A stretch of DNA of 64,000 bases from Marsupella aquatica (lineage: Eukaryota; Plantae; Marchantiophyta): positions 21,923,455 through 21,987,454 of the forward strand of contig OZ316897.1 in the NCBI GenBank assembly GCA_973895155.1. The letters are read 5' to 3'. Below, one piece after another: positions 28,681 through 57,364 of the stretch (positions are counted from its first letter, which is position 1; each line of letters opens with the position of its first letter). Made by a program: the position numbers and the translations under genes. Below the pieces are notes generated by a model that made no database searches, was not told where the DNA came from, and was given only the letters and a program-made list of their open reading frames with translations.

Positions 28681-28691
28681 CATGACACAGC

Positions 28692-33926: not shown

Positions 33927-34469
33927 TCACATCTGCTTGTAAGAAGCACCATGAGATTCGAGCCAATTTGCTTTCTCTGCATCGGGGATGTTCTGCATCT
34001 GCGAGTACATCTCAGCTGCTTCGGAGGTTGTGAGAATCCAGTTACCCTTCGTGCCATCGTCAGTGTAGACTATACCAGTAGGCTTCATCTGGCTGTCACA
34101 TGTCTGGGAATCAGTGAGGAGCGATCGGCGTCGAGCTGGGTACCAGAAAGCTCCGGTGAACTGGCCTCCAAGCAAGCAGAAGTTGCCGCTGCCCGTGCCG
34201 ACCTGCGTGGTGCAGCCTCCATCTCTGTAAAATTTGCTTGCCTGAGAACTTCCAGATGTGCTTGTGACCAGGACAGAGCCGCCGTCTATTGCGCTCACTT
34301 CACAGCAAATCTGGGCTCCGATGCCATTGAATGAGTAGCCTGACCCACTGCACTGCGAGGTGCTTTCGTAGAAGATGATATCAACTGCTCCAACGAGGCT
34401 TGAGAACTGCAGCAACAGAAGCACTGGCAGCACCGTATACATGACGCCCTTTGCGCTGATCTTCACCAT
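33927..34469 (-). CDS. Secreted Cys-rich precursor, copy 1 (180 aa, 6 Cys)
   Basis: Signal peptide ending LVGA|VD, internal RRRSLL motif, 5'-UTR intron 34491-34777, TATA-like TATTTAAG near 34915; two paralogs in the window. Confidence 0.9.
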   Translation of the reverse strand: MVKISAKGVMYTVLPVLLLLQFSSLVGAVDIIFYESTSQCSGSGYSFNGIGAQICCEVSAIDGGSVLVTSTSGSSQASKFYRDGGCTTQVGTGSGNFCLLGGQFTGAFWYPARRRSLLTDSQTCDSQMKPTGIVYTDDGTKGNWILTTSEAAEMYSQMQNIPDAEKANWLESHGASYKQM

Positions 34470-35744
34470 CGTGGAAAGTTTGAAAAGGTCCTGCAAAATA
34501 AGTCAGACCGACCCATCCCTCAGTTAGTCCCAGAAAAGCAATCGCATGGGCTAGCTGCAAGCGCTTGCTATATTATCAGACATTCAAACAGATGTTGTGC
34601 GTACTGTGAAAAACAACGAAACAGCTTTGTGCATCAAACAGATTTGGCATCCATGTGCGAATTGAAAGCTTGGCACAAGAAATAGAAACCAGTCGACTGC
34701 GCAATGGCACCATTCAAACATAAGTGTTGGGCTATCGCGCGTCTTCACAGAAGGTTTCTCTCAAGAGGCTAACATACCGATATATTACTCAGCTCAGCTA
34801 AGGTACTTACTAGCTAGAATTGAGCAACGAGTTGAGATGCGAATACACTTGTAGATCGTGAATGGCAGCGGTGAGAATGAGAATGATATGAGCTACGGTG
34901 GTTTGCATGGCTTAAATACTAATATGGTGCAGACCTTTTCTTCAAGTCTGGACCGTAGAGCCGTGCCAAGTCCTGTGTAGCAGGTCTTATCTTCCCAAAA
35001 GGATCGAGAACATCATGTTGACAATTAATTTCTTTCCAGCTAGTATCACTTTCGACAGTGCTGCAGTTTGGGTACGGTCATTTTCTGTGGGAACGTTCAT
35101 TCTGCAGAAGAGAGGTGTCAGAATTCGGGTATCATTATCATCTGAGCAATCACCATTGAATAAAAACTACTTAGTCACACTAGTACTAGGCATACTGGTT
35201 TACCCTCCAATATGGAAAGTGTCCACCACTTAGCTAGCAAAGATATTAAATAACGAAAGGTTAATTTCCAATTTCTACATAGGTTTCTACATAGGTTGCC
35301 CATCCGGAAAGTAATTTGTTATGTTTTCTTACTTAGAACATAACTATAGAACATAACTAAAAAACATGTATCATATTTACGGACCCCCATTAGGGGTCTC
35401 TTGCAAATTCTCTGTCATGAGGTTGCACCACATCACCACAACCAGCCTCAAACAGGAATGATCTTATTTTTAACAATAACAAATGTGCACATTCCTGTTT
35501 GTGGCAAAAGCAACATAATTTTTGGGGCGCCATACCGTAAATATTAAACGTAAAAAAACCAAAATACAAAGAAAGAGATGTCATTTAGTAAAACAAAGTT
35601 ACCATTTTGATGTTTGTCAAAGATATATCAATGTTTTATATCAAAATGTTTGTATTTTCTAATTGTTTGTAAGTTTGAAAAAACCAATCGATAGAAATGT
35701 ACATAGTTAAAACCTCTTTGGCTTCACATTGTAAACTAAATATT

Positions 35745-36230
35745 AATAAATCTCCTTAGTACTTGATAAACTCTGTCAATGTTTGATTCATTGGAAAACT
35801 CAAGATCAAGATTTAGAAACTCGTGACCTCTTTAGTAATGTCTTGATAAAATCTCTCAACGTCACACTCATTAGAAAGCTATAGTAAAAGTAAAAACTTA
35901 TCATCTCCTTAGTACTTGACAAAATCTATCAATGTTAGATTGATTGGAAAGTTAGATAAATTTAGATACTCATGATCTCTCTATATATTGACAAATAATC
36001 TCAATGTCACACATTAGAAAGCTAAAGAAATTGAAAATCTCCTGATCTCTTTAATACCGTGACAAAATCTGACATTGAATTTGTCAATGTCGGACTCAAT
36101 GTTGGAAAGCTAAAAGAATTCATGAACTCATGATCAAATTTTTTTATGCTCACACTCATTGGAAAGGCAAAGAAATTCAAAAACTCATATGGAACTTGAC
36201 AAAATTTGTCAATCTGAGGCTCATTGGAAA
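35745..36230 (+). repeat. Degenerate tandem repeat of about 60-70 bp (ttgacaaaatct.tcaatgt...cattggaaag)
   Basis: The motif recurs about seven times. Confidence 0.7.
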
Positions 36231-37879
36231 CCCATTCTCAATTAAGAGGTATCACAATCTCTTCACCATCATAAACTTAGCCGCTACAAATTGATTTCTT
36301 TGATTACGTCGTCATTGCTTGTCCACAATGAGTGCTTTCCGACTTGAATTGTTTGCATCTCTTAGATAGTCTTCAACTAAAGTTCACTCTGAACACAGGT
36401 TGACGCCAAATGCAGCCTCTATGTCAAAGAAACAATTGTTGGTCTTCCCCTCACACCATAGCTTTTTTAAATAAAAATAACTACAAATCTTTTGTGTGAA
36501 ATGATGGCTCGTTCGTTTTGTGTGTTCTTCCCATTGAATCGACAAGCACTCTTTAGCCAACAGCTGAGTGTTGTGCTCCAGTCTGTCTTGTGACGGTAAT
36601 GCTCAATGTAACTCACAAACAATCAATCAAGAATGGTTGAAACATGATTTCTCCAATGTGTAAGCAAAACCTGTCAAAAAACTCAATTCCTCCACATTCA
36701 ACCTTCTGTTTGATAAATCTATATCTTTTGAGCATTTCTTTTGTGCAAGCACACACCAATACCATCGGGAGACTCAAAACCGTCAGTTACCGTCTTGCTG
36801 AAAATTGATTTCACTTAATCACACACACATTCCTTGGATGAACATGGGGGTCCACGGATTAATTTATGACTTACATTAACTATGAGTCATTTTTAATATG
36901 AAATTTAACATTTTTATTCCTCATGGGATGGGATGCTCCTTAATTTCAAAATCAATGGAAACATGGACAGTCACATCATTCAGCACTATTGCTCACAAAC
37001 CAGAATAACCAACTTTTTAGTCCATATAAAACTGTAGACCCGTGCCTATTAAACAAGAGTTGTGACCAGGGAGCCAGGTTACTTTGTCTTATTGCAGGAC
37101 ATTTTTTATATGCATTTTAATTACATTTTGCCTTAGATAATGTGCATCTTCTGTAATGCAATTTTGAAATTGTTTTTGACCCCCTCTGAGTGTTTTGAAT
37201 TTCTTTTATGTACACCTTCTGTTTAAGTCTATATTTATTTTTCAATCTTGCCAACTCTTTATCAAAACATGCATGTTATTTTAAATATGTATATATATAG
37301 GTTTTATTGAATTTACATTTCATACACGTACTAAGGATACTTAAACCCGAGCTTATATATATCTTCTGGCCCAAGAGTGTGAGGCAGCCAAGGAATGTGA
37401 GAAGTTCTCACACTTCAAGATATTGCCAGCCCCTACCCTAACTTTGAACTAGCTACTGCGTAGAGTGTTGTTTCCTAAGTCTATGGTTTTGAGTGACTTA
37501 AGTGTAGCTAGCTAAACTAAGTCATTATGAGAGAAACATGAAAATCCAGCCACATGTTTTTAAAAATATTTATAATCTTCTAAGAAGAGCTAAATAGTTA
37601 TGTACTACAAAAATGACATGTTAATGTACTACAAAAATTATACCTGCGGATAAGAGTGGGGCCAACACTTTGTAAGGCCATTAGCAATGAGGAGATGGCG
37701 CAAGTCACCAAGAGAGCTTGAAAGTGGCTCATAGAAAATTCACTACTTTCTAAAAAGAATGAGTACTTATTTGTTTTAAGATTATAATCCTTTTGTTCAG
37801 GAAACACTACATAACAACCTACTGCATTTTCTTTTAGGGGATACTCACAACTTTAGTTAGCTTAAAGAAAAATGCTTTA

Positions 37880-38330
37880 CTTATTTATCTAGATACAACA
37901 CTACTATTTTTTTTAATACCATAATTATGAGGAAGGTTGCTTAAAGTTGGAGAACCTTAGCCCTGTCAGCCCGCCTGTCAGTTGAATTGTTGTTTAATTT
38001 CATCCCTCCACGAGTGTGTGACACATAGGGTCCTCTAGCTATAATATTCTTGCGCACCAAAACCTAACTTATGGCTATAATAGTCTTGCGCACCAAACCT
38101 AACTTATGGCTATAATAGTCTTGCGCGCCAAAACTTATCTATTTGGTGATTGCTTTCCTGATTTATCTAGAGACAACAATCCTATTTTTCTTAAAATACC
38201 ATATGAGGAAGGTTGCTCAAAGTTGGAGAACCTTATCCTTGTTGAATTGTTGTTTAATTTCATCCCTCCACGAGTGTGTGACACATAGGATACCCTAGCT
38301 ATATTAATAATCTTGCGAACCAAAACTTGG
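37880..38330 (+). repeat. Local tandem duplication of about 250 bp
   Basis: gttgaattgttgtttaatttcatccctccacgagtgtgtgacacatagg at 37981 and 38241. Confidence 0.85.
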
Positions 38331-41300
38331 CATATGCTACGTACACTAGGACGTGGATGGCTCATGGGATCCGACTGACCCAGGGAGCCAGGATGGACCC
38401 AGGCCTGGAGGATTGGGTGGACGAAAAATAGATTGCCACAGGTACTGTGGACCGGCGGAGTTGATACACATCACAATCATATTGTGGGTACCCTGTTGAT
38501 ATTACACATATTGTGATTACCCTGCAAGTACAAGGAGACTAGCTCGGAACAAGAGGGTGTATTTGCTGACCTGATGTACCTACTGTGGAAGGTCTCGACT
38601 TTGTCTCGTTAACTTATTGACCAAGCGAGACACGAAGAGTCGATAAGGTTAGTCTCCAACGAACGAATCCAGGGCCCAGGTATCCTCTTCGTTACTATAT
38701 ACACGGTAAACCCGCTGCTTGAGATGCATGACATCATGACCAATCGGCCTACATGCACAAGGTTGAAACGATTCGTTTGTGCATGGCTTCGACTGACCGC
38801 CACAGCTCGTGATAGATTATTTAGCATGGTCATGACTGTTACATTGATTGTACTCCCAGAGTCCCAGTCTTCATTTAACAAACTTTCGCGCGCAAGCCTT
38901 ATATAGGCTACGTTCACTAATAAATCAAAATTACTCTTTGTCACTCATTTGTCTCCGTCTTCCTTCAGCCAGCACACCGCTAGATTTTATTATGGTCTCT
39001 GTCATGCGATTGATGAAATCTCAAGTTCCTATATAAACTTTCATTCTTCTAAAGTGCTACTTTCCTATCCAAATTCCGTTTGATTGTTCTAATCTCTCCA
39101 CCAGTTCCTCTCAGAGGGGGTATTTGATAGCATTGAGACAATCCCATTGGCAGTTTCATGCTTGATTGACCCACATTTCAAATCCAGTCCCATGTGTATA
39201 ATATTATTGAAAGACGGTATTCAAGATGGCAAAAGATTGTCTTGGGTTTGAATGTAGTCTTATATAGAACAGAGGTAAATCACGGTGATATCACACAAAG
39301 TTCTCTGTGGTTCAGCTAGGGGGATTTTTATACAGCAAGCTTCAGCTTTCAAAGATCAAGCGCATGTCCTTAGCCATGGAGTTCAATACACTCTCGTACC
39401 AATAATTAACAAGATGAAGTCAGGTCTAAGTACACCGCTTGGACCAGTGACCGATGGGACCGGATTGACCCGGCCCTGGGAGGCTGGCACCCAGACCGCT
39501 TGGACCAGTGACCGATGGGACCGATGGCACCCAGAGACGAAGTACATTCACAAGTACTTCTCTGGACCCGCCGAGCTATTACACATCAGACACGATCATA
39601 TTGGTGGGTAGCAAGTACAGGACAGTAACTGGAAACATGATATATATAATTTTGAGAGACCAACTGGAGAGAAGATGAACCACTCCATCTGTAGCGTTGA
39701 TTCACTTTTCTTCATGAGTATAATTTTCCGTTCGAAAAAAAAAATCAAATAGCTGAATGAAGATCTGATTCAATTGTAAGTTCTGACGAACCAACCAAGC
39801 GAGGCACTAAAAGTAAACAACAGTACGAATTTCTGGAAGTCACCAAGGAAGGCGCCATCTCCGCGTGGCCAATGTTGACTTCATGACAAACGCATGGCAA
39901 CCTAGACCAACCAACTTTTAAAATCGGGCTCAAATACTGTGCACCTGCTGACATGACATCGTCTGAGCACAACACCGCATGGCCCCTGATTCCGCAAAGG
40001 TAGTGCGTCATTTTCCACGTATTGTACTTCAAACTCGATAGTCCTCAACAACCGAAGTGACCGGACTTGAAAGGAACACCAGACTAGTAATTTAAGCCAT
40101 TTTAAGCCATGCACTGTCGGCATTCCTAGTATTAGACCCGTTTTGATTTCATGTGTCAAGCTTCCAAAATCCGCTCAATGTGTGATATAGCATGCTCATC
40201 CCGGTACATGCTTGAGTTTTTGTCTTGTAGTGATTTGAAAGCAAATAAAATTTGAGAACATAACTACAAAAATTGGTACACAGTGACCAATGAAAAGTAC
40301 AATCTAGGATGCTACAATGTATGCACTTAATTCAATGTCTTCATGAATGACACTCATTTCAATAAAAACTATAAACTTATAAAAGAAAGACATAAAGGGA
40401 ACTTAAGACACAATCAGAAGCGCTTCCTGGGCAAAACTAACGGGATGGGTTGACTTAATTAGACGAACTTGGGCCGACGATTAATCAGTACCCAAGTATA
40501 CCCAGCCATACTAAGAGAGTCTAGAATAATTCACTTGGGAGAGTGGCTAATCAGTTCAATACGAATTGAGACCTAAGCTCATGGAGCTCCATCAAAATGA
40601 TGCAGAAGGGTTCTAACATTTCCTTGGTACTTAAGTACATACATCCATGCTTTAAAAAAATGCTACAGCTTAGCTTGTAGTCAAGGAGTTTATTCTACCC
40701 ATGGCTATTGACATGCAAATCTGTCAATTATATAAGAAATTGCAACTTACATTTTACTGGAAAGCACTGATATATCAATTACAACCTATCCAAATGGGTA
40801 TCTTCTTTATCATATCATTTTTCACCCCTTTATTTGTTATTTGAAGTGCTATTTTTAATATTCCTCTGGATATTCCATTGTTTTAATAGTAACAGGGTCT
40901 GCTTATTTTTCTTCATTTGCCTTGCCTCAAACAAATTGAAGAATGGTATGAGTACATATTGATATAAACAGTGACTTTACAGTGCATGTGTTGTCTCCAA
41001 AATTAAAAAGTGACAAAAAGTTCTTGACTTACGTACTAGCTTCTTGACTAGCTAGTTTAAAACATATACTAGTAGGGGTTAACCATCAGCTAATTGGCTA
41101 TGCATTGACTTCCTTATCTCTTATTGAGGTATCTGCAGCAAACAGTAGAATAAGACATACTCCCATTTCCCCCAAAATGGGGATGACTAGATACAAATTA
41201 CGACAAGGGGGGAGCAATCCCGGAGTGGGACTTGGATACACAACTTTTGGATAATAGGCAGGGGTCTAAATTTTTATAAGGACTAAAATGTTTGCTTAAA

Positions 41301-42064
41301 ACTAGCATTTCACAGTTGGTCAAGACACCTGGAAAAACTACTAGGGGCGTGATTCTCAAAAGTGAAGTGCCCTTCTTAAGATAGCCTGACAATGTGGGTG
41401 TCACAGTCCATGAGGACGGGCAAAACAAACCCCTCGGTCCATCTGGGCTGAACTTTCCTAGTTTGGATGTAGGCCCATGTGCTGAAGAAAAGCCATATAT
41501 TAATTAGGTTTCTAACAAGTTTTGCCACATCAAAAGAAGTTTGGTTTTTTTTGTCGTTAAATTATTTCCGTGGATTCTTTGATTTTGAGAGGGACAAGAG
41601 TTTAGTAGACTAAAATAAAACTTCACATAGTCAATTGGACATAAAGTCATTATAAGGGTTCTGATTAAAAACTTGTCTTATGAAAAGGGCCAGTTGCATG
41701 CATACCTCCCCAAAATCTTAACCTCCCCAAAATTAGTGTTTGCACCTTCAGATTGACCCTACATACCCATTTATCCCTCTTGCCTCACATCCTTTGCCCT
41801 CCCATATGAAACAAACAGAAAACAAGAAAAAAAATACTTATAGTAGAAAAAGGGAAACTGAAACAATCAATGAGTACTTAGTACATGTGACTAATTAAGA
41901 GCAAAAACACAGGGCACTCAATGAGTGTCCAGCCAGGGTTAGAGTAAAGATTGTACTTATATGTGAGAGATCTATGGGGTTGGGGGAGGAGGGGTGATAG
42001 TGTTGACCCTTTAAAGTATATGCCAAAAGTGTCGTCAAAAGAACCTGATTGACATGTAAGAGAG

Positions 42065-42066
<2 letters not shown>

Positions 42067-42095
<29 letters not shown>
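42067..42095. repeat. (CA)n microsatellite
   Basis: Seen directly. Confidence 0.95.
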
Positions 42096-42097
<2 letters not shown>

Positions 42098-42429
42098 GGC
42101 ATATACATATACACTGCCAATGAACAAAAAGTGCCTAACCCGGAGACAGGTTTTTATTTTCACAATATTCATTCACCCCCAAATCCTGAATATTAACATT
42201 TTTCATTTATCTGTTGTGGTAGTGGGGGAGTCTTCATTTGATAATATTATATCTGTTAAAACTACAAGTACTGTATGAGGGCAAGGCTTAACCCAAGGAT
42301 CACCCTTTCCCACAAGTCCTAACTATTAGGCTAGATTTGAAGTTTGTGTTAGTATAGATACAAAGGTTTTCAGCATATATGTTAATTAGACTTAGTTTTA
42401 ACTTTGTACCTTTAAGTTGCAATCCCGGT

Positions 42430-42675
42430 TCCAATTGAGATTGCACACATTTGTGCTACTGGAAAACTTTACATTCCAATTGAGAGTGCACATGATTCTG
42501 ATACTTGAGACGTTTACATTTAAATTGAGAGTGCACATGATTATGGTCCTTTTCATTCCATGGTCCTTTTCATTCGAATTGATTGAAAGTGCACACGATT
42601 GTGATAGTTGAGATCTCTTTGACCCCTTTTGATTCTAATTGCGAGTGCACACGATTGTGGTACTTGAGATCTTTT
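42430..42675 (+). repeat. Degenerate repeat with core ttgagagtgcacatgatt
   Basis: About five copies of the core at irregular spacing. Confidence 0.7.
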
Positions 42676-43300
42676 TGAGACTGCTACAATATAGTGAGTG
42701 CAATTGTCGATCTCAATGCTTAATTTCCTTCTTTTAGTGATAATTGAATTTTTGATTTAGTTTAATACAGTGAATGCATGTGACTTGCTCAATGCTTAAT
42801 TTCTTATGGTGATGACTGAATTTTTAATTTACTTCATGAGGTAGATTGTTTGTTTGTTTTCCATTATTTTAGAATTACAAGATACCCTATTTAATTTCTT
42901 TAAGTTTTGAAATTTTCACAAGACTAGTTGCCTCACTGAGTAGAGGATGTCCTGAAACCCATCGTCCTTTAAAGATCATGTGCTAATTTCTAATCAGGCA
43001 AAACTGAAATCAAGCAAAAAAGATTTAGGTTGAAAACTCAGTCTCTAGATGTAATTGGAGTATCACGTGTTTCTTCAAAGATAATCATTTGGATAAGAGG
43101 ACCCTATAACAGAAAGTGAAACTGAACTTTGTCCCATCTAAATTTATTTTTATTTTTATGGAAAACAGAATGCCTGGTACGACTGTGAGAAATATATACT
43201 CAATGGTGATTGATTGCATGATTATGATACCCGAAATTTTGACCCCTCTCATGCAGAATGAACGTTCCCACAGAACATGACCGCGCATAACCAGCAGCAC

Positions 43301-43628
43301 GGTGGAAATCATTTGATACTAGCTGGAAAGAAATGAATTGCACTCAATTAGTGTCATCCTTTGGAACAGTGGACATTGATACTAGCTGGAAACAAATGAA
43401 TTGCAACTCAATTAATGTCATCCTTCGGAACGGTGGAAATTGATACTAGCTGGAAAGAAATGAATTGCACTCAATGAATGTCATCCTTTGGAGGGTGGAA
43501 ATTGATACTGGCTAGAAAGAAATGAATTGCACTCAATTAATGTCACCCTTTGGAACGGTGGAAATTGAAATTGATACTAGCTGGAAATAAATGAATTGCA
43601 CTCAATTAATGTCATCCTTTGGAACGGT
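43301..43628 (+). repeat. Five copies of a 62-bp unit directly upstream of the copy-2 TATA-like box
   Basis: gtggaaattgatactagctggaaagaaatgaattgcactcaattaatgtcatcctttggaac starting near 43301, 43369, 43431, 43493 and 43555. Confidence 0.95.
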
Positions 43629-43694
43629 AAGACCTCCGAAACAAGACTTGGACCCACGATCCAGACTTGGAAGAAAAACTCTACACCAGACTAG

Positions 43695-43702
43695 TATTTA
43701 AG
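43695..43702 (+). promoter_or_regulatory. TATA-like box of copy 2
   Basis: agtatttaagc is conserved in inverted form near 34910-34920, upstream of the conserved 5'-UTR intron (43823-44123). Confidence 0.5.
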
Positions 43703-44148
43703 CAATGCAAAACACTGTAACTCGTATCACTCTTCCATTCACTATATATTGTACAAGTGAATTCGCATTTGAACTCGTGGCGGATCAATTCTAGTACCTT
43801 ACCTGACCTGAATAACAAATCGGTAAGTTAGCCTCGTGAGACAAACCTTCTGTGAAGACAATTGCGCAACACATAAATTTCAATTATGCCGTTGCTTTCA
43901 CTCTCATGCAGCAGCCTCAGAACATGCGCAGACAACTGGATTCTATTTTTTTGTGCCAAGCTTTCGCACATGGATGCCAAATCTGTTTGATGCACAAAGC
44001 TGTTTTCGTTGTTTTTCCCCAGTTACGTACGCGGAACATTATTTGAATGTCTGATAATATAGCAAGCGCTTCTAGCCCATGCGATTGTTTCGCTGAACTA
44101 ACTGAGGGATGGGAACTTTGCAGGACCATTTCAACCTTTTTTACGATC

Positions 44149-44691
44149 ATGGACAAGATCGGCGCAAAGGGCGTCATGTACGCAGTATTGCCAATGCTTC
44201 TGTTGTTGAAGTTCTCAGGCCTCGTTGCAGCAGTTGATATCATCTTCTACGAAAGCACCTCACAGTGCAGTGGGAGAGGCTACTCATGCAATAACATCCC
44301 ACCCCAAGTTTGTTGTATAGTGAATGCACAGGACGGTGGCTCTGTGCTGGTCACAAGCACATCTGGAAGTTCTCAGGCCAGCAAATGTCACAGAGATGGA
44401 GGCTGCACCACGCAGGTCGGCTCGGGCAACGGGAATGTCTGCTATCCGGGTGGCCAGTTCACGGGAGCTTTCTGGTACAACGCTCGACGCCGATTGCTCC
44501 TGACTGATTCCGAGACATGTGACAGCCAGATGAAGCCTACTGCTGTAGTCTACACGGACGATGGCATGAAGGGCAACTGGATCCTCACAACCTCCGAAGC
44601 ATCTGAGATGTACTCACAGATGCAGCATATCCCCGACGCAGAGAAAGCAAAGTGGCTCGAGTCTCATGGTGCTTCTTACAAGCAGCTGTGA
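44149..44691 (+). CDS. Secreted Cys-rich precursor, copy 2 (180 aa, 8 Cys)
   Basis: Signal peptide ending VAA|VD, RRRLLL motif, intact frame, 5'-UTR intron GT at 43823 to AG at 44123. Confidence 0.9.
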   Translation: MDKIGAKGVMYAVLPMLLLLKFSGLVAAVDIIFYESTSQCSGRGYSCNNIPPQVCCIVNAQDGGSVLVTSTSGSSQASKCHRDGGCTTQVGSGNGNVCYPGGQFTGAFWYNARRRLLLTDSETCDSQMKPTAVVYTDDGMKGNWILTTSEASEMYSQMQHIPDAEKAKWLESHGASYKQL

Positions 44692-46539
44692 AGTGGGTGC
44701 GCGAAAGAAAGTGATGACAGACTAGCTAACGTGATTTCCAGGAGGAAAGCTAGCATTGTGATTAAGCATCAACACGTACGCGGCCTTCATCGGTTGGGTA
44801 GTTTCGCTTTAAGGTTACCGTCAAATGTCGGATGTAGAGTGTCAAAAGAGATAATATATAGTAGATAGTTGCATTTGCAAGACGTATGATACTTGCACTC
44901 CAATCGTGATAGCGTCAGTTGTCAAGCTGCCGACAACTTTCTGTCTCGCTATATAAGATAGGAGAATAAATCGACGGAGTTAATTAGGGTAGGGTAGGGT
45001 AGTTGTGAGCTCCACATTACGCATTGGTGACAATTCTTACTGGGAATGACGGCTGCCGCATATTCATATACTTCCGTGACTATCTTATCATTCAGTAAAG
45101 TTTCTTGGTTTTTATGTCTTCAATTGAATACCGACTGGACTGTAGATTGTAGTTGCGCTTGATAAACTTATGAAGAACGAATATGTTTTGCACGAGTATG
45201 CTTCAAAAGAGTTTGTCATCGTTTTTTTCTTAGGCGCAATTCGTGTTGTCCTTGGAGTTCATTCGCCAAAATTAAATGATATCACATCACTCACAGCGAG
45301 TGTAAGTTCGCGTGCCAGTATGCTGCTAAAGCAAATTATTATGTCTACATCCCACCACGAAAGTTATTTAACAGTACGTGCGAGCTAGAGAAATGAAAGG
45401 AACAATAGCTGAAAATGCTCATGTGGTGTTGTTATGTTTCGACCCAGCGCCCTAAACGTTATCGATTTCCCTCGCCGTCCCTGTGATATCCTCTGAAATT
45501 GGTGGCGCTTTTGTGATAGCAACGCTAGAATCTGAAAGAAACTGATTCGTACGATTTCACAAGACTTTACTTGAATCTGCTCAAATCGTTCTCTGTGATT
45601 TCAGAAGCCAGGGAGCGAAGTGACTGTTTTCTTGTTATTAAATTTTCGTGACATCTCTCTACGTACGCAGTAAAATTAACCGTGAGGCCAACATCGCTCG
45701 ATCAGATATTAACGGTAGTCATGTACCCCTCGCAGTCATATTACCCCTCGCTTCCATTCTCAGGAGTGCAGTTGGGAAATCATTTTAGTACGTTAGAGAC
45801 TGTCTTGCACCCGTGTCATGGACTGTCGGGTGCAGTGCTACAACCATGCGTTAGTCCAGGTGTTTTTACATAATTGAGGCGATCAGAAATATAACGATTC
45901 AATAATAGCTGCGGAAGAGCATATGGATCCTTATATTGGTAGCGCTCGCAAAACCGAGAATCTTGACGACAGGTCTTCTCCCTTTGACATAATGTACTTT
46001 GGTTTAGGGTTTTACGGTTCCGACCCGAGAAAGCAACGTACAGCCGCACGGATGTATTGGTAACTAAGTATAATTATGGATAACTTCCTGCAATCAGACT
46101 TCGAACCGTCCGGAACAAAATGCGCGAAAGAGAGAACTAAGACTAGGGAGGATTTCATTGTACGGTATAATCTCGGCGGGGATCTCGGGATCCAACAGCA
46201 GAGCGATCTCTGGGGGACTTAGATAATCCTAAACCACCGATAGAATGAAAACATGGGGGCGGGGGAGCGATATGCATTATATCGTTTATGTTCCTTGCTT
46301 TTGCAACCTTTATCTGATGATCCTGGGGACGTAACCGCGTGTGGGGCGGGAGCCTCCATCAGTCAGTCCCTAATGTATAGCTTACAGTCCCTTGCCGGCC
46401 ACTCTATCATGGCCGGCCTAGCTACAGTAGCTACGAATTGATAATCCAGAGATGTTTCTCTATATGCAACGACTTTCTGAATGTGCAATTATCGAGAACA
46501 CAAATTATCTGGATTGGAACTAGTGACTAAATTTTCATA

Positions 46540-47050
46540 ACCATTCTGTTTCATTTTGGTAACATAGTCTAAGTGTTTAGGCACAACCTAATATTTTGGT
46601 TAAGAGTAATGATTCTTACTAGATTAAGAGTAATGATTCTAGAGTATTGAGTCATGATTTATAGAATCTTGGTTTATGTTATGCCAAATACTTATTCTCT
46701 ATGGAGTTGTGATTAATGTTTGGACAACACTACTTTCCAAGGGAGTCATGCTTGTTTGGTAACAAAGTCTAAATGTTTAGGCATAACCTAGTATTTTGGT
46801 TAAGAGTAATGATTCTAGAATCTTGGTAGATGTTTTGTCAAATGTTTCTTTCTTGATGGAGTAAGGGTTTATGTTCTTGCAACACTTCTTTTCAATGGAG
46901 TCATACCTATTTTGTAATAGAGTCTAAATGTTCAAAGGGAGCCTAATACTTTGGTTGAGAGTCATGATTGATAGAGTCTTGATTTATGTTGTGCCAAATA
47001 CTTATTCTCTATGGAGTGGTGGTTTATGTTTTGGCAACACTTTTTCCCAA
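46540..47050 (+). repeat. Degenerate tandem repeat, roughly 190-200 bp period
   Basis: ggtaac..agtctaa.tgtttaggcac/taacc...ttttggttaagagtaatgatt recurs near 46558, 46758 and 46914. Confidence 0.7.
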
Positions 47051-49019
47051 AAAGTTGATGGCACAAAGTCAATTGGGCAGGAGTGGCTGACAAAAAGTTT
47101 TGGGTGCCAAAACATAAACCTGAAGTTGATGTCGCAAAGTTGATCGGGCCGGAGCACATGAGTTAAATCGTAGAGTTAGTATTGGTTTGTGTTCTGCCAA
47201 ACTTGGGCCAGAGCGGGCAGCAGCATTGGGGACCCAATGCTGGGATGGGTAGTGTATGGCACCCCGAGAAAGTGGGGGAGCATTAACTTGATGTAGATTT
47301 AACTTAGGGTCTTCCTGGCCAATATAGTGAGATCATTTCCAATCGATCATAGTAGTTGCGCAAACATGGATACAGCCCTGGATAGAGATGAGCATTCAGA
47401 TCAACTTGCCCATGGATAAGCATATCTAGGGTAAAGTGTTTAATATATTTTGTCACAGAAAGTACATTACAGGAGATTTAGTTTAGTACTCCATGCCAAG
47501 AAAATGCATCGCCTGATCTTGTGAGACAGGGGAGGCATCAAAAATTTCTTAATGGGAAACCGGCTCATCAATTTGTTCTTGACAACAAGGCTGCTGATAT
47601 AGCATGTTCATCCTAGAACATGTCTCTTTTTTGTCTTCTAGTGATATTCATTTAAGTAGGGACATGTAAAATATATGCACATAAAATCACATTATGACCA
47701 AGAAAGTACAAAGGTACTAAAGAGTTGAGTTGTGCACATACAGTACAGATTTTCATTTGCTTCTAGGTAATGACATTCAACTCAATTAAAACCATAAATT
47801 TTGCAAAGTAAATCATGAGGGGAACTTAATACACCAGATGTTCACATTGATCAAATTCATTTCTTACACTCTCATGAGAAAAAAGAGAATTCACTAAGGA
47901 GTGAAAAGGAAAGATTAAACCTTGATGAGGGGAGCCAATACATTCAAAATACTCTAAGTTCACTAAAATTAAGAGGGGTCCTAAAGTTAATTCAAAATCA
48001 AATTAATACAAATGATTTACATTGTTAAGGCACATTGAAATCAAAATACTTGACACAAAATATGAATGAGAGGCCTCATTCACAATTGGAGGACCCAAAA
48101 GGAACGTCACACTCAAAAGTGACCATAGTTTATTATGCTTTAGGATATCATTTTTAGGGTGTAATGAGATGATATAGAAAATTTGATGTACTATACTTAA
48201 TAAACATCCTATAGATTGGTAACATTCATTAAACTATCTAGCATTTGAGACTTTGAAGCTTTCCTTATATGTCCTTCAAAGATTGATAAAAGGACTTGTC
48301 ACGCAACGGGTCACATCATTTCAGGACTCAAAAGGACTCTAAAAAATGCATTTTATATAATGAAATTTTACCAAAGCATGCATACTAATCGCATAATCTT
48401 ATATTTCAAAACTTAAATAGTGACACACAGTAAACCTTTATATACAGGACAAAAATAATCAGTAATTTTGGCTTATTTAGGGCCATCAATAACAGGATCC
48501 CTTAAAACAGTTGAAACTTTGATGTATCTACACGGTGAGGTAGGTTACACCATGCAAAATAGTCTTGTGAAAAAATTAGACTTAAATGTCTTGAGATAAA
48601 ATCATGATGAACCTTTTTCCATGTTACGAAAGTCAATTTTCACTAAAAAAACATGTTTTTGAGTCCTGAAAGTGGTTCCTGCAAGGTACACCCAATTGTG
48701 AATGAGGCCGAGACAAAATCTGAAAGGTGGATTCACCATATAGCAGCCTCAAGAAAAGCTGAGTCGGTTCCTACCGTAGTTCCTAATGGCCTGAATTGTT
48801 CAGCTGCTTAATTTATTCTATCACGTTTTATGTCTGCAGATCAGAGGATAACTGACAGAGGTTGGGTTCCGAGAGAGTTATTCAGTGTTGGAGGCTTACT
48901 TTGGTTGTCCTTCGGATGCCTTGCTTACATTTTCTCCATGGACTCTATGGAACAGAAATATGCCCTTAGTCATTGAAGAAACAAATTGTGCTTCAATGGC
49001 TAGAAACACCGGCCCCCCT

Positions 49020-51618
49020 GGCGAGGTCACCTTGACGGCCCTTCAAGATCTCCATCCACAGCCCTATGATCAGCTCCCTTTGTTCGTGGAGGATTTTGAG
49101 CCTGAGGAGAATCTTCAGTTTAGTAGGGACCACTTCACCTATGCCTTCCTCCATGCCCCGCGTTGCGCGGCTGGTGGCCCCTCTGGCTATGTCTTTGAGC
49201 ATTTTCGTGATTTATTCCCCCCTGAGGATCCTTAGTCTGGTTTTCCAGTTTTCTTCTCCTTTTGCCAGTGTATTGTAGCCGACCGTTTGCCTCCTCCCGT
49301 CTCTCGGCTTTTGAGTGCTTCTCGTTTACTGGCCATGGCTAAGTCTTCACCGGGTGTTCGGCCCATAGCTATTGGAGAGGTTTTTCTTCGTCTGGTGTCT
49401 CGCACACTTTCATCGCAGTATCGCTCTGCACTATCGGATCATCTATCTCCACATCAGTTTACAGTGGGCGTTCCGGCGGTTGTGAGACAGTTATTGCGGG
49501 TATTCGTACTACCTTGGACCTCCACCCTGATTGGGTTGTCCTCCAGGTTGATGTCTCTAATGCTTTCAGTACGGTTTCTCGGGCAACAATTTTTTGTGCT
49601 TTGGGGCGGCGGATCCAGACATCCAGTCCCTTATCCCCTTTGTCCGTTGTTTTTATGGACTCGAGGCCCCCCTCTTCTATAGTCATCACACCTCTACAGG
49701 AGTGTATACCACTCTTTCTTCTGCAGAAGGTACACGTCAGGGTGACCCTTTGGGTGGGCCTCTTTTTGCCATTGCCCATTTTACTGCTTTACGGGAAGCC
49801 TCCGTGGCCCACCCCGAGTGTATCTTCCCCTCCCTTTCAGATGACACCCACATCATTGGTCCACCTGTTGCGGTTACTTTTGCCCTCGCCACCCTTTCCA
49901 CCCATTTGTTGGGCCTCGGTTTACGGGTTCAGCCAGTGAAGAGTCATGCATGGAGTCCAGCTGGGTTACCCTCTGATCTTGCGCTTCCCCCTGGGTACTT
50001 ACGCCCAAATGACGGTCTTCGGGTCCTTGGCTCCCCAGTCGGTACCGCCTCCTTTTGCTCATCTTTCATTGCTGACGCTCTACAGGCTGCCTTAGCCCCT
50101 ACTTCTATGCTCCCTAAGTTAGGAGATTCTCAGGCAGCATTTGGGTTGTTATTGCGATGCATCCACCCTCGCGCGTCCTATTTGGCTCGGACACATCCCC
50201 CTACGGAGGATCTGTATCTACACCTCCGAGCGTTTGATGTCTCCATTCGTGAGACTTTGGCTTCTCTTTTAGGGCCAGGTACTTTGCTCTCATCTCCGTG
50301 GCTTCATCGACAGCTCAGTCTTCCTATTTCTCACGGTGGTTTTGGGCTTACTTCCACTGAGCGCCTTGCACCTTTGGCCTTTTTGGGTGCGTGGGCGGCC
50401 GCCTTCTCATTGTTGGCAGATTGTTTCCTTGCTGAGGATCGACCTTTTTTACTTTCGTCTCTTATGGAGGTAGAGGAGGGTTCCCTCCCATTTCAGGTTC
50501 ATTTGCGCGTGGCGCGGTCATCATTACCAGATCCTATTCGAGCTGCGTTACCTTCATTTCAGGAGTTTTTATCCTTGGACCCCGTCCGTCTTCAGGCAGA
50601 CCTTGCTGGGCGTATGCACGCTTTCACCCTCTCCAGCATCCTCAACAAGGCACCTGACATGGACCGAGCTCGGATTCTTTCTTCTGGAGGGAAGGGCGCA
50701 GGAGGTTGGCTTCAGGCCAATCCAGTCATTCCTCACCTACGGATGTCTTCAGTGGAGTTTGCGACAACCATGCGTCTTCGTATGGGCTTGCCGCACCCAC
50801 TTCTTGCTGGTTTACCTCCTACTTGCACTTGTGGGAAGCCTTGTGATGCCACAGGTGTCCATCTTCTTCGGTACAGTTTGGGCGGCGAAACCATTTTTGT
50901 TCACGATGTTGTGAGAGATGCCACTGCTCAGGTTCTTTCTGGCTCTTTGGTCTGCGCACGGCGGGAGGTGGTGCTCGAGTTACCTGGTCCTCCACACAGC
51001 AGTTACGGGTGGATCTTACCATGGTCCGTGAGGGTCACCGTACTTTGGCAGATGTAGTGGTGGCAAACCCATTGCGCCAAGACATCATTGGGACAGCGGC
51101 AACAACGGCAAGGGCAGCAACATCACGAGCAGCAACAACGAAGGAGGCCAAATATGTTGCACGAGCTTCATCTGATAGCTTCCTGCCCCTTGCTCTTGAG
51201 ATATTTGGGCGTCTCCATCCTCATTTCGACGGGCTTCTTCGCCAAGCTGTTCGGGATGTTCACGGCCGGATGGGTCCCACTGGACCTCCGCTATCTGTTT
51301 TGACCACGCACTTTCGCCAACGCATTTCAGTCACCTTACAGCGTGCTCAAGCTCGGGCCATCTATCGTCGATCTTTGACAGTGGGTGCTAGTGTGACTCC
51401 ACAGCGGCTAGCCCCCCTAGAGGACTTGATGTAGACCATTAGCTTTTTGCCACATTTGCTAGGAATGATGAGAACCTCGGTCCATTTGCGGTAGTTTTAG
51501 CTACTCTTTCTTAGTTTTTAGGGGTTTCCTTTTGCTCATTTCTTTTGTGTTTGGTTTTGTCCACTTGGGACCTCTCTTGTTTATTCTTTTGTACTCTATT
51601 TGACCCTTTTATGTAAAA
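49020..51618 (+). mobile_element. 5'-truncated CRE-clade (RT plus restriction-like endonuclease) non-LTR retrotransposon, decayed
   Basis: AAGGPSG, RPIAIGE, QVDVSNAF, GTRQGDPLGG, SDD, GLRVLGSPVG, GGFGL; then CTCG...H, VHD, D...DV, KEAKY, PLALEIFG. Stop at 49233 and several frameshifts; T-rich 3' UTR ending in a short A run. Confidence 0.85.
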
Positions 51619-52969
51619 AGTATGTGTTATATTCTTCATTGTGCTTGGGAAAACATGATAAATATATCTGTTCCAGCTGGCGAGCTATCATTGATGTGAT
51701 TTAGAAACCATCTTTTATCCAATCAGGCGTCAACTGATGACCTTTTAATTTCCTTCCCACGATCAAGAGAAGCACTGGGAAGGGTGAAAAAGGGGCCCCA
51801 TATTTCTTGAGCACTGTGTTATTCTCTCACACAACAATGTTGCATTGAGTACTTGACAACTCGGGTGGCTTTCCTGAATGGTTAGCAACGACCAGATGGC
51901 GGGCCCAAATGTATTGATGCGAGGTCAGGTCAACAAAGCTACATGCTTCTACTACCGTATACCTGTGCTTTTTTCCTGAAATATGATTGAAGAGTACAGG
52001 ACGAAGAGGCTTACGTAGCGCTTTGCTAGCAAACCAGACCTAGTCGCCTAGTTGGAAATTTGATTAATGTTTGTTTCGAGACACAAAAACAAATCTTTCA
52101 CAAGTTGACAGAATCATATGAGGGCTGGAGATGGTTCGTTTGTGTTCAGGTCAGTATGGAAACACTTCAGACTTCACGGGCTTAATTTGTGAAGAACAGA
52201 ACGTCCAATTTGTTCAGGTTGAGCCGAACAAACGAGGGCAATCCGAAAATTATTCATAGTCAGATCAAGTGATGGGACAACACCCTTCGGAATCTAACTT
52301 TTTCAATTTGATCAACGACCAGTCTGAATAATTAAATGATCTCAAGCCATTTCTGTATTGGTTTAATGACAGACAACTAAAACTACCGGTTTCTTCTTAA
52401 AGAGCTACATGTGACATTCCCTAATTTGAATTCTAAAATATGGGATGTGCCGAGCGACTACCGTCATAAACATTTTGGCAGTATGAAGGTCTTTGGGGAT
52501 GTGCTAATCGAACGCCTGTCAGCTGCATTGGGGCCGATTAACTCTCCTTGATTTGAGCATCTGCACGTTTCTCAAGTCCCTCTCCTCGAACTTGCTGCGA
52601 AACTATACAGAATGGCGGGTCGACATCTCTGCGGTTCAGCAACGGTAGTCGGTATCAAGAACCAATCTCTCAGTAATTAGATCTCCCTACCACCGTAAAC
52701 CAATCGCTCAGTAAGTGATGTTACTGACAGGAATTCAAAACAGCATTTGCGGAATGACGGGTGTTGTTGTGAGTAAAAAGGGTCGTTCGATTGCGTCGAC
52801 CATGGTTGAGAGTTGTGTGCTTGAGCCACAGGAAACGATAATTGGTGGTATAGAAAATCAGCCTCTCAATATTTTAACTAGATGCAGAGGAATCTAGATA
52901 TGCCCTATGAACAATCTTTGATTTTCAATAAAGATGTAACCAGTTATTGGCGGTACGGACAATCATTCT

Positions 52970-53700
52970 GTCGATATTTCTCGATGCGAAGACGAATCTA
53001 TAAAATGCATTTTCCATAAAGATGATGGGTGTTTACGTACCGCGGACAAGAATTGACTGGCTTCAACATTTCTTCACCTCGCCTTGGTATACAAACCATG
53101 ATACGCTGGTACAGATTCATGCATGGAGGGTTGGGACAGATTCAAGCAGCACTATAGATTCAAGCTGCACTATAGGCGCTGGCGAGATGGGGAGGACTTC
53201 AAGTTGCCTCCTCAAGAATCTTTGATATTCCATACAGATATACACTGCAACCGATGGTACCGAGAGACAGTCTCTCAATATTTTCTCGATGCGAAGAGTA
53301 ATCTAGAAATGCATGTTCCATAAAGATGATGGGTGTTGTTGTACCGTGGAGAAGAATTGCCTGGATTCAACATTTCTTCACCTCACCTTGGGTTTACTAT
53401 CCATGATACGCTGATACAGATTCAAGTCAGAAGAGTTATATTGGTGCTACCGAGAATAAATTGTTGACGAGTTCCAGTTGCGTCCAGAAATATCTTAGGT
53501 TTCCCGTAAAGGATGTTGGGGCCATTGTGACTAGGAGGAAGAATTATCTTTGGATGACATTTCTTCACTTCGCCTTGGTTTACATATCGCATCAGATTGG
53601 CACAGGTTCAATTGAAGAGAAATTCAAAGTTGCCTAGTGAAGGATTGTTGAAGAATATTTGATTTCCATCATAATGATGGGTGTTGAAGTGATGAAGAAT
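52970..53700 (+). repeat. Diverged direct repeats of about 300 bp, possibly a coding remnant
   Basis: ttctcgatgcgaaga...ccataaagatgatgggtgtt...caacatttcttcacctc at about 52979 and 53282; a weaker third copy near 53500. Confidence 0.6.
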
Positions 53701-56700
53701 AGAAGGGCAAAATTTTCAATTAATCAAAGACTTCCGGGTGGACGGTATGGCGGTAGTGCATGCATGAGGTCTGTGGACTGAGGTGTGGAGCTAGACTGCC
53801 TAAGCAGCAAACCGCCCCAACAGGACAACACTTGCCCTTCGGGCTTTATCTGAGACAATGCACTTGTGAGAGGGCTCTACACAAAGTGGATCCAAGAGCC
53901 CTAGAGGTTGCAGTAGCAGGACAGGTGTTGAAATACAATAGGTGCTGCAGGAACCCGGCTGCCCAATCGAACGGGAGTAAACTTAGCTGCCCAATCGAAT
54001 GGGACTAAACAGAGCTAAGCTGCCCACTACACAAGCTGCCCACTATCTTTTTCTGACGTCGTAGCTCGGGATAAGAGATTCTCGGAGAATCCAGGATCCA
54101 ACGGACAGAGAAGTCCTTCTGACTCCCAGATTTTCCGGATGAAGCTCCTGGCCGAGAGTTGGCCACGCTAGGGACTCACCTGCGCCCTTCTGTTTTCATT
54201 GATAGCTGATTAGACGCAGAGGACTGTAGTGCGATCAGAAATTGTTGGGGCCGGTGAAAAAATACAGAGGGCTTCGATACGTGTTTCAAGTTGGAAAGTA
54301 CATTTCGTTAACTCATCTCTGCCATTATGTTTTCCTGGAAACTTGATTACTATGATCAGAATTTGATAGGCTACATTGGAAAGTGTCCAAAACTCACCAA
54401 TGGCTTTACATCGGAAAGTCTTATGTTCCTCTTCAATTTACTGTAGAGATCATAAAAGCGAGCTCAGGTTGTCCATTTAGGTGTAGTTGCGTTGATCCCA
54501 TCTATTCGAATGTGGCAGATTGAAGCTTAATTAATCCAATCTATTTTATGGACGCCCAACAAGCTGTAGTTGCGAGCTCAGTAGCGGATGTAGTGGACCG
54601 AAAGACTTGTGAACGCCTGGTTGAGCTCCTGACTGTGGTTGTGCTAATTGAGCTCAGAGAAGGATCATAAATTAACATTCGACCTCACGCCTTCAAATTG
54701 GTTGAGATAGGCTAATTACTCGTTCCTGATTGGATCATAATCCTGAAATTTCCGTCTCCCTTCGTCCGGCGTGAGCTAGGTGACAATTTCTCTTAGTTTT
54801 TAGGGGCCCCTCTAAGATAGAGCTTTGACGACGAACGAACGATCCAAGAAAATATTAGTGGAGTTCAGTCCACTCCTAATTCCACTCAAACCGTAAATAC
54901 CCACTACGAAGAAGGAGAAGAGCCGTGTAGCCGACCCGGAACGTTGTCGTTTCAATGGGAAGAAGACTACTCCATACATTCCCTTCAAAATTTTCCTGAA
55001 ACTTTAAGGTCGTGGGTCTAGTGTAGTCGTAAAGTATGCGTAACCTCAAAGATTAATGGGGTGACATGAAGATAACCCAGTCAAGCGAGGCTTTGCATGA
55101 GTAGTACCCGAAGTTCAAAACAGAGGCAATGAGACGATTCAAATTCATTTAGGTGCATCAGTTGACATCTACGCTCGTCGATCAAGGTAAGTGCGTACTG
55201 CACCGCGTTTATGGGACCATGAGCAGTGCAAGCGTTTACCTGGTCCGACATATTGTCAAAGAGAAGGTCCTGCAAAAATTGATCCGTCTTCAAGACAGCC
55301 AAACAGATTGCCCGGGGCTGGAATTTGGACGGTCTTGGTAGGCTGATCATTTCCACCATGAACAGAACGAAAAACCGATTTCGTGGTTGTTTGTTGTGAT
55401 TCCAAAACGATGATTTTGAATCGGCTGAGACCTCATGGCTTTTCAATGATCTTCTTCAGACGCCTCGCTTCAGGGTCTAAACCCTTGCCATTGTAACCCT
55501 GAGTAACCATTCCTATACATCCTCTCAAAGATGCACAAACGAGGTCTCGAACTGATCTAAAGTAGGTCTGAAGTGGCAGCTTTTTAATTCACCGTCCTGT
55601 GAGTGTGCCAAAAGTGAGCCGTCAGGCAGGTACATGCATGACCAGCACTGGAGGAGCAAATTAGCTCAGGGAAAATAGGTGGACACATTTTAATTTAACA
55701 ATTCAGTCACAGCTGGCCACTGGACCCACTTGAGCCAGAGGCGCCACGATGTACCTGGAGTAGCCATGAATTAGAACTAGAGGAAGGATTCTTGGTGGTC
55801 AACTAAAATTTAGGTCCTTTTAAATTTAGATCAGTACTGAGGCTCCGAATGGTCGATCTCGGCCAGTTTTTCAACAGAGATCGACAATTTTTGACCGAGA
55901 CCTAGATCGAGATTATTCATCGAGTGGGGTGGCCTTTTAATTTTCAAGTCTTAACTTTGTGAAGGAAGAACTAAGGGGGAAGAGCATATAAGGAGCATGC
56001 ATGGCAGGGAAAGAGAAAGCTTTAGAGCTCGTACCACTCCGCAAGGGTGAGCAGAGCACGCCTCTGCCACTTGCTGAAGACATGGACGCCAAGCCCACCG
56101 TTGGGAAGGGTGAAGCTAGCACCTCTGCGGATCGTAGCTCAAACGAGAGCTCAAATAGTTTCAAACCGTTCGTACTGATCAAGAAATAGGGTGAGTTTGG
56201 GTCCTGGACTTGGGATGTAAGTTCCGATATCTGCGTCATGATCTGTGAGAACCCACATTGCGGTTCACTGCATCGAGTGCTGGCAGGCTACTCTAGCAAC
56301 CACTGAACAGTCCACGGTCGGATGCGATGTTTGCAGCATGGCACATTCAAAAGATTGAGTGAGTGCCCGATTGAGTGATTTCTGGCCCCGAAGTTGGTTG
56401 GTAGAAGCAAGTCAGATGGTTCCTTCAGTTATCGGGTGGCATGGGGACTTAACAGAAAACAGTGTCATGTGCATGGAGTATTGTTTCAAGAATTTTTCTG
56501 CAGTTAAATCTTGTTCCGTTGTTCATTGTCGGCATTTCAGCTTTGGATACAGAAAGACAAACGGTTCATCTCATTGCAAATGATTATGAATAATGACAAT
56601 CAACTAAACACATAAAAACCAAGGAACTTTACTGAATATGCGGCAGCCGTCATTCCCAGTAATAATTATTGCCAATGCAAAATGTGGAGCGTACAACTAC

Positions 56701-56923
56701 CCTACTCTAACTCCACCGATTTATTCTCCTATCTTAGCGAGACAGAGAGTTGTCCGCAGCTTGATCGACAAGCTATCACGGTGGGAGTGCAAGTATTATA
56801 CATTTTGCAAATTATCTAGTATATTTTGTCTGTTCAGAGAGTCTCTGCATTCGACATCAGATTGCTAGCTTTCCTACTGGAAATCATAGTTAGCTACTCA
56901 TAACTTTCTTTGGCGCACACACT

Positions 56924-57364
56924 TCACAACTGCTTGTAAGAAGCACCATGAGATTCGAGCCAATTTGCTTTCGCTGCATCGGGGATGGATCTGCGAGTAC
57001 ATCTCAGCTGCTTCGGAGGTTGTGAGAATCCAGTTACCCTTCGCGCCATCGTCAGTGTAGACTACACCAGTAGGCTTCATCTGGCTGTCACATGTCTGGG
57101 AATCAGTCAGGAGCGATCGGCGTCCAGCTTGGTACCAGAAAGCTCCGGTGAACTGGCCTCCAACTAAGCAGAAGTTGCCTTTGCCCGAGCCGACCTGCGT
57201 GGTACAGCCTCCATTTCTGTAAAATTTGCTGACCTGAGAACTTCCAGATGTGCTTGTGACCAGCACAGAGCCGCCGTCTTTTGCGCTCACTACACAGCAA
57301 ATGTTGGATTTGATGCCATTGAATGAGTAGCCGCTCCCTTTGCAGTGCGAGGTGCTTTCGTAGA
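56924..57364 (-). pseudogene. Secreted Cys-rich precursor, copy 3, with signal peptide lost and a C-terminal frameshift
   Basis: YESTSHC...GRRSLL...MYSQ, then a small deletion near 56985; the 5' end is joined directly to Copia sequence. Confidence 0.9.

Follow-up and report, generated by a model that had tools for sequence, protein, structure and literature searches.

A 64,000-nucleotide stretch of the genome of the liverwort Marsupella aquatica (positions 21,923,455 to 21,987,454 of contig OZ316897.1, hereafter the window) contains three copies, A to C, of a gene for a small cysteine-rich protein related to the family PF28391. We tentatively propose that this protein is a secreted precursor, likely derived from fungi, which would be cut at an internal RRRSLL site to free a MiAMP1-like domain acting in defence via the glucan of microbial cell walls. 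The parts of the three copies are located as follows.

33927..34469, minus strand: copy A, intact single-exon coding sequence of 180 amino acids (translation, tblastn)
34386..34469, minus strand: predicted signal peptide of copy A, residues 1-28 (from hydrophobicity and the family alignment)
34134..34385, minus strand: N-domain of copy A, residues 29-112, predicted beta/gamma-crystallin fold, 5 Cys, net charge -3
34116..34133, minus strand: RRRSLL of copy A, likely S1P-type site, in the lowest-confidence part of the structural model
33930..34115, minus strand: C-domain of copy A, residues 119-180, acidic, 1 Cys, predicted beta-hairpin and two helices, no fold match
44149..44691, plus strand: copy B, intact single-exon coding sequence of 180 amino acids, 82% identity to A, RRRLLL at 44485-44502
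56924..57364, minus strand: copy C, remnant without promoter and signal peptide, 5-base deletion near 56988

A tblastn search of the window with copy A gives exactly three loci, the next match having an E-value of 0.13. Copy A was recovered at 34469-33930 (100% identity) and copy B at 44149-44688 (82%), while copy C appeared in two frames, 57365-56985 (85%) and 56992-56927 (82%). The latter has lost its first 33 codons and is frameshifted, and its site reads GRRSLL. The ratio of non-synonymous to synonymous substitution rates (dN/dS) is 0.41 between A and B and 1.21 between A and C over the in-frame stretch of C, both from small counts, indicating that A and B are constrained and C is decaying. 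Residues 9-19 of both intact copies are hydrophobic (mean Kyte-Doolittle value 2.4), and the mature start VDIIF lines up across the members in the family alignment, suggesting a signal peptide cut after residue 28. Residues 29-112 contain 5 Cys in A and 7 in B, the basic site occupies residues 113-118 (RRRSLL and RRRLLL, respectively), and a single Cys (residue 124) follows it in each. An earlier reading made from the sequence alone had described three paralogs, two of them intact, with a signal peptide, an N-domain, the RRRSLL or RRRLLL site and a C-domain; tblastn and translation uphold this description for the 180-residue A and B, with the signal peptide as a prediction.

The first homology search returned 13 matches at 55-82% identity, three of them from Calypogeia fissa, and all 13 carry PF28391. 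In the Atlas, where PF28391 is named ARB_05566_N, the three top-scoring clusters carry this family; we take its ARB prefix to be a dermatophyte locus tag. The commonest phylum of these clusters is Ascomycota, with a score of 0.93 and 195-202 shared features. A local Pfam scan of copies A-C returned no family, and the membership of the window protein in PF28391 is indirect, through its 13 relatives and the three top clusters. The sequence-only reading had noted a likeness to uncharacterised ascomycete secreted proteins, and this agrees with the Ascomycota-dominated clusters; it had also considered that the best matches might belong to a characterised plant family, and all 13 first matches were to the uncharacterised PF28391 instead. 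Standard plant families (defensin, thionin, RALF, LTP) were considered and rejected.

An exhaustive profile search gave 75 representatives among 1.84 billion, of which 70 were new and 20 of these were looked up. Named among the 20 are Marchantia, Riccia, the moss Ceratodon, Tothia, Pseudogymnoascus and Coprinopsis, and Mycena came from another search. Marchantia polymorpha has members at five neighbouring locus tags, MPTK1_7g02900 to 7g02910, as well as at 8g00430, 7g10820 and 7g10840, and further liverwort members were found in M. paleacea and Riccia fluitans. The Ceratodon members, from two assemblies, consist of the N-domain only (114 and 115 amino acids). The named or confirmed members include neither vascular plants nor algae, prokaryotes or viruses, most rows of the profile search carrying no name. 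Scans for the pattern of the close alignment retained none of 79 candidates in metagenome contigs and none of 22 in prokaryote genomes, and plasmids gave none. One of 39 stretches in viral contigs matched and was rejected, as it lies inside a Mu-type transposition gene (labelled by reading of its open reading frame) and is without the cysteine pattern. Sequence searches of the PDB gave nothing significant. As for the literature, of which the articles cited here by number were available in part, we found nothing on the function of ARB_05566/PF28391. The tables of horizontal gene transfers in PMC12513842 (Supplementary Data 8-11) may list the family; the one file available from the supplement of that article and the available part of PMC11906373 contain no match to the family gene identifiers, and the accessible parts of PMC6108113 and PMC13078155 added nothing on it. 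The family is already represented in Pfam, and public annotations of liverworts contain its members as hypothetical proteins.

The structure of the mature protein was modelled with AlphaFold from a 72-row alignment with a mean predicted local distance difference test (pLDDT) of 92.6 and a predicted template modelling score of 0.87, the confidence dipping to 73-81 in the linker at the basic site. The top structural match of the N-domain (model residues 1-84) is MiAMP1 (Z 6.6, root-mean-square deviation 2.7, 74 of 76 residues), and the first 15 structural rows are beta/gamma-crystallin-type chains bar one fucosidase domain; AFP1, SKLP and WmKT gave Z values of 3.8-4.1. The N-domain is thus predicted to adopt a beta/gamma-crystallin (Greek-key barrel) fold, and these matches to the model support a killer-toxin-type fold for it. 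Several results weigh against a closer relationship to MiAMP1. Its Z is tied within 1 unit with those of lens crystallins (6.2 for mouse gammaS-crystallin), values below 8 may reflect a common fold arrangement and 6.6 falls within the range of unrelated folds. Foldseek ranks the crystallin fold first but with nothing at E<=0.001, the Pfam MiAMP1 model matches none of 72 members at E<=0.1, and the sequence searches gave no MiAMP1 chain at E<=10. The N-domain also departs from the 76-residue MiAMP1 pattern of six Cys in three disulfides, since four core Cys fit by spacing and the others vary. By prediction the family would work like MiAMP1 or WmKT while standing outside the MiAMP1 family. Modelled alone with a pLDDT of 81.5, the C-domain comprises a hairpin, two helices and one strand; it has a best Z of 3.6, no Foldseek match at E<=0.001 and no usable Atlas match, which does not imply a new fold. 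Nothing at E<=0.001 came from a viral fold library.

The two domains have evolved differently. Between A and B, dN is 0.14 in the N-domain and 0.058 in the linker plus C-domain, and across the family the mean identity is 41.6% for the N-domain against 46.9% for the C-domain, which is the more similar part in 548 of the 741 pairs. Across the family this domain is acidic in most cases. The faster change of the N-domain, together with a C-domain that is acidic, not recognisable in most fungal members and missing in Ceratodon, fits an active N-domain accompanied by a pro-domain. A similar arrangement is known in thionin precursors, in which a signal peptide and a Cys-rich defence domain precede an acidic pro-domain at the C-terminus, which a subtilase cuts off. 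The net charge of -3 of the copy A N-domain favours binding, and cationic membrane lysis by this copy was rejected on the same ground. Sp-AMP3, a relative of MiAMP1, is antifungal and binds beta-1,3-glucan (10.1101/127746).

Putting these elements together, the signal peptide would be removed first and an S1P-type subtilase would then cut after RSLL in the Golgi. Disulfides 40-98 and 55-86 may form the core of the N-domain, by analogy with MiAMP1, and both domains are predicted to fold and pack together. The acidic and better-conserved C-domain could serve as a pro-domain or as a chaperone, remaining bound to the N-domain up to export and held there in copy A possibly through Cys56-Cys124. Activity would reside in the faster-changing N-domain, which is acidic in A and presumably acts there as a glycan binder and not as a cationic membrane lyser.

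We consider the chances of an antimicrobial role for the protein evenly balanced. Data on infection are available for the Marchantia relatives in PMC12890914, assuming that MPTK1_7g02900 corresponds to Mp7g02900, which is listed there without annotation and in the accessory class (PMC12890914 Dataset S1). This gene is up 3 days post inoculation with Colletotrichum nymphaeae (row-centred values of 3.5, 3.5 and 1.2 versus -0.7, -0.9 and -1.8), and up at 2-4 days in pathogen columns that the legend assigns to Phytophthora palmivora. Other data of the same article weigh against the proposed defence role. Mp7g02900 responds in many of 25 abiotic treatments (up in 14, down in 1), and it is the single fungus-induced gene among the five Marchantia identifiers searched, in an experiment with 1,266 induced genes. 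The fungus caused no significant change in Mp7g10820 or Mp7g10840, of which one was up 3 days post inoculation with Phytophthora; Mp8g00430 was down under Phytophthora, and Mp7g02910 has no row among those listed. The infection transcriptomes that the sequence-only reading had proposed as a check therefore agree with it for the pathogen induction of Mp7g02900, but not for the other identifiers under the fungus, and abiotic induction is found too. The protein could instead be processed and secreted without being antimicrobial, as a general stress, cell-wall or signalling protein built on a stable crystallin scaffold. We regard this as unlikely given that tandem expansion, gene loss, accessory status and faster change of the N-domain are typical of defence genes, and that the top structural match is an antimicrobial protein.

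The release of the N-domain in the proposed defence precursor would depend on the basic site. Linkers were counted in 80 aligned rows of 86, excluding Ceratodon and five rows that were short or could not be placed, and were assigned to the liverwort or fungal side by name in 16 rows and by tree position in the rest. The motif RxL[LM] was found in 38 of 53 liverwort-side linkers (9 of the 12 named) and in none of the 27 on the fungal side (0 of 4 named), 16 of which have a Kex2-type [KR]R. Shuffled liverwort-side linkers contained the motif in 1.3 cases on average and in 6 at the maximum over 1000 shuffles, far below the observed number, keeping in mind that related sequences are not independent. 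The 15 liverwort-side linkers that lack RxL[LM] weigh against a general site, but the counts as a whole support the conserved S1P-type site put forward earlier. To our knowledge kexin orthologues are absent from plants and S1P is absent from ascomycetes, although plant cells are able to process dibasic sites. Known S1P sites in mammals include RRLL and RSLK (PMC8310232), and RALF precursors are cut by S1P at a dibasic site, the moss PpRALF1 having RRLL (PMC9933782). Cleavage of the liverwort proteins at RxL[LM] is, on these sequence grounds, probable.

The patchy distribution of the family, in which the named matches (from 20 of the 70 new profile rows) are bryophytes and Dikarya only, leads us to infer a transfer between fungi and bryophytes, which we consider highly probable. 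Two fungal phyla, Ascomycota and Basidiomycota, are represented in the family and fungus-to-bryophyte transfers are frequent (PMC12513842, PMC12890914), making this direction the likelier one, and we favour it with good but lesser confidence. It would have been an early transfer, after which a Kex2-type dibasic site may have turned into an S1P-type one. The genes are integrated in the liverwort genomes. In the window they are local duplicates amid plant-type transposons and their relatives lie on multi-megabase sequences of Calypogeia, Marchantia and Riccia, ruling out contamination by a fungal contig.

A careful tree was built with 59 of the 86 rows, dropping 27 long-branch, partial or redundant ones. 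In this unrooted tree the 37 liverwort-side rows form one group (support 96/93), and the liverworts together with a group of Tothia and Pseudogymnoascus are split from the other fungi (99/92). Some observations weigh against a simple nesting. In the approximately unbiased (AU) test, joining the two ascomycete-type groups costs 0.31 log units and is not rejected (p=0.486), Ceratodon switched sides between the quick and the careful tree, and most rows were assigned to a side by tree position. The sequence-only reading had named nesting among fungal sequences as support for horizontal transfer; the tree groups the liverworts with the Tothia lineage but, with this alternative unrejected and no root, does not demonstrate nesting. 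Among fungi the liverwort-type C-domain is confined to the seven rows of the Tothia/Pseudogymnoascus group, five of which score 26-39 bits, while the other 22 fungal-type rows score at most 6 bits or do not match. The seven rows (P0064, P0069, P0071, P0075, P0080, P0100 and P0103) have the liverwort-type C-domain together with an extra Cys pair. Their N-domains score 10-27 versus 19-46 for most other fungal-type rows, a comparison biased by selection with a liverwort profile. The group is a candidate for the donor or the recipient lineage.

These last features would also fit a gene that was not taken from fungi by this route but had long been present in bryophytes and reached a single ascomycete group from them, or a history of several transfers or of ancient paralogy with losses. 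The confined C-domain and the low, if biased, N-domain scores of the Tothia group point that way, as do the deep diversity of the liverwort sequences, the AU result and the unstable placement of Ceratodon. On the other side are the presence of two fungal phyla with bryophytes as the only plants named, the single supported group of the liverwort-side rows and the frequency of transfers in the opposite direction. We find this history unlikely, and keep acquisition from fungi as the preferred one.

The number of cysteines bears on whether the two chains stay together after cleavage, as the sequence-only reading had proposed through an interchain disulfide. They were counted in 73 rows spanning both domains (13 of the 86 are partial and were dropped). 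Cys40 and Cys55 are present in all 73, an earlier family alignment showed no variation at the remaining two core Cys, and Cys124 is found in 63. By spacing, the core disulfides may be 40-98 and 55-86, like two of the MiAMP1 pairs as printed in 10.1101/127746. Two optional Cys, one near residue 75 and one just before the site, come as a pair (both in 23 rows, the first only in 2, the second only in 0). Cys47 is accompanied by Cys56 in 48 of 48 rows, which indicates a 47-56 pair, and the 8 rows without Cys56 are also without Cys47. An even N-domain set with a lone C-terminal Cys is found in 44 of the 73 rows, which speaks against the interchain bond; an odd N-domain with a spare Cys56 plus Cys124 is found in 17, copy A included. 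The odd counts of 5 and 7 reported earlier for the N-domain stand, but the 7 of copy B are the usual even six of the family plus a private Cys80. The interchain disulfide, then, fits copy A by parity, where it is plausible, and is no family rule. Alternatives to this bond are a lone thiol, a homodimer or an exchange among Cys47, 56 and 124.

Yeast K1 and K28 precursors have an internal basic processing site, for which the candidate here is the motif of the 38 of 53 liverwort-side rows, in a variable linker of lower confidence. An obligatory disulfide-linked alpha/beta toxin of this kind would be consistent with the spare Cys56 and the Cys124 of copy A and the other rows like it (17 of 73), with the retention of Cys124 and with a conserved C-domain that folds in the model. 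The separated halves also co-fold with a score of 0.42 versus 0.01 for the best control, the runs agreeing in at least 75% of the contacts with a partner pLDDT of at least 68. This pairing is weak support, as passes at 0.60 or below in the benchmark comprised 5 of the 78 solved complexes and every one of the 4 mismatches that passed, and the halves come from one chain. Against such a toxin, the even core set leaves Cys124 without a partner in 44 rows, including 7 without both Cys47 and Cys56, Cys47 appears committed to Cys56, and in most fungal members the C-domain is not recognisably shared. K1, K28 and KP6 were not listed in the sequence or fold searches of either domain, although absence from such lists is not exclusion. 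The lone Cys124 and the existence of N-domain-only members (Ceratodon) fit a pro-domain better than a toxin like K1 or K28, which we hold to be improbable. Least credible is a rewired fungal Kex2-processed antagonism protein representing a lineage-wide and as yet undescribed class of processed antifungal proteins in liverworts, with a Cys47/56/124 switch by which the C-domain would be tethered and then released or kept by disulfide exchange.

The flanks of the three copies and the neighbouring repeats are located as follows.

34491..34777, minus strand: predicted intron in the 5' untranslated region (5'-UTR) of copy A, splice-like motifs conserved with B; alternative donor 34810; TATA-like box near 34918
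43823..44123, plus strand: predicted 5'-UTR intron of copy B, splice-like motifs conserved with A; TATA-like box near 43695
43567..44762, no strand assigned: inverted duplication unit of B, promoter included, matching 33853-35053 at 79%
28691..29902, no strand assigned: downstream flank common to A and C, 88% to 55375-56554; 3.6 kb separates it from A, absent at C
57365..58906, minus strand: internal Copia-type retrotransposon fragment (integrase, SH3) adjoining copy C

Copies A and B have in common a 1.2 kb stretch with the promoter, inverted relative to each other. An in-frame ATG is found upstream of copy B at 44047, inside the predicted 5'-UTR intron. In four sequencing runs the non-coding flanks were covered, with several diverged copies, and the splice joint was not seen. 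Directly upstream of the TATA-like box of B there are five tandem units of 63-69 bp (43313-43637), of which copy A has one related stretch (35022-35066), and run contigs show similar units at the B-promoter position; variation in copy number is possible in this promoter. Copy C begins at 57364, flush against the Copia fragment, and the junction is spanned without differences by one contig of run X3, which is possibly the source sample. The 5-base deletion of C was not found in the listed run contigs, which have an undeleted paralogue form. The 3.6 kb located behind copy A and not behind C correspond to 29903-33509, and a part of them (32588-33043) recurs inverted behind B.

Elsewhere in the window, 1-2809 and 14974-17806 are an inverted duplication (91% identity over 2.8 kb) with long low-complexity open reading frames, one of which has a sub-threshold match to ATG16 (coiled-coil). 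A Transposase_21 (tnp2) reading frame at 3687-4958 (minus strand) is the remnant of a CACTA-type transposon. Between B and C, a broken run of reading frames (48960-51434, plus strand) presumably derives from the polymerase of a retrotransposon without long terminal repeats, by motifs we take to be typical; no Pfam match at E<=0.001 was found in it. Repeated palindromic GATAAATTTATC motifs at 59490-61050 are reminiscent of the subterminal repeats of DNA transposons.

If the proposed origin and function are correct, a fold and a function would be assigned to an unstudied Pfam family, and the liverworts would have a pathogen-induced and likely fungus-derived defence family that can be tested in Marchantia (array Mp7g02900-02910). 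It would also be a clean case of a transferred gene fitting its processing site to a host protease, and a possible source of new antifungal proteins.

Compared with PF28391, the N-domain described here is that of a member, but the site is RRxLL versus KR, the genome is that of a plant and the C-domain is common to one fungal subgroup only. MiAMP1/Sp-AMP (PDB 1C01) is similar in predicted fold, in secretion and probably in two of three disulfides by spacing; it differs by its 12% identity and the lack of a Pfam MiAMP1 match, and the family described here adds a C-domain and a processing site. MiAMP1 is moreover a basic protein, while the N-domain of copy A is acidic. Thionin precursors have a similar layout, with unrelated fold and sequence and a strongly cationic product. 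Other secreted antagonism proteins with the crystallin fold are Williopsis WmKT (1WKT), Streptomyces AFP1 and SKLP, these three with low scores here, and Cladosporium Ecp4, Ecp7 and CfCE72. In CfCE72 a putative kexin site links a crystallin-like domain with another domain (10.1101/127746), although there the crystallin domain is C-terminal and its partner KP6-like. Ustilago KP6 has, as proposed here, a precursor with an internal basic processing site (10.1101/127746), but K1, K28 and KP6 differ in that no sequence or fold match to them was listed and an obligatory two-chain state is unsupported family-wide. The KP4 killer-protein genes and fruit-body lectins of bryophytes are likewise fungus-derived secreted or defence genes (PMC12513842, PMC12890914), of other families and folds. 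Antimicrobial proteins with a crystallin fold have been described before, as have transfers of fungal genes into bryophytes, and the family described here is not a new kind of system.

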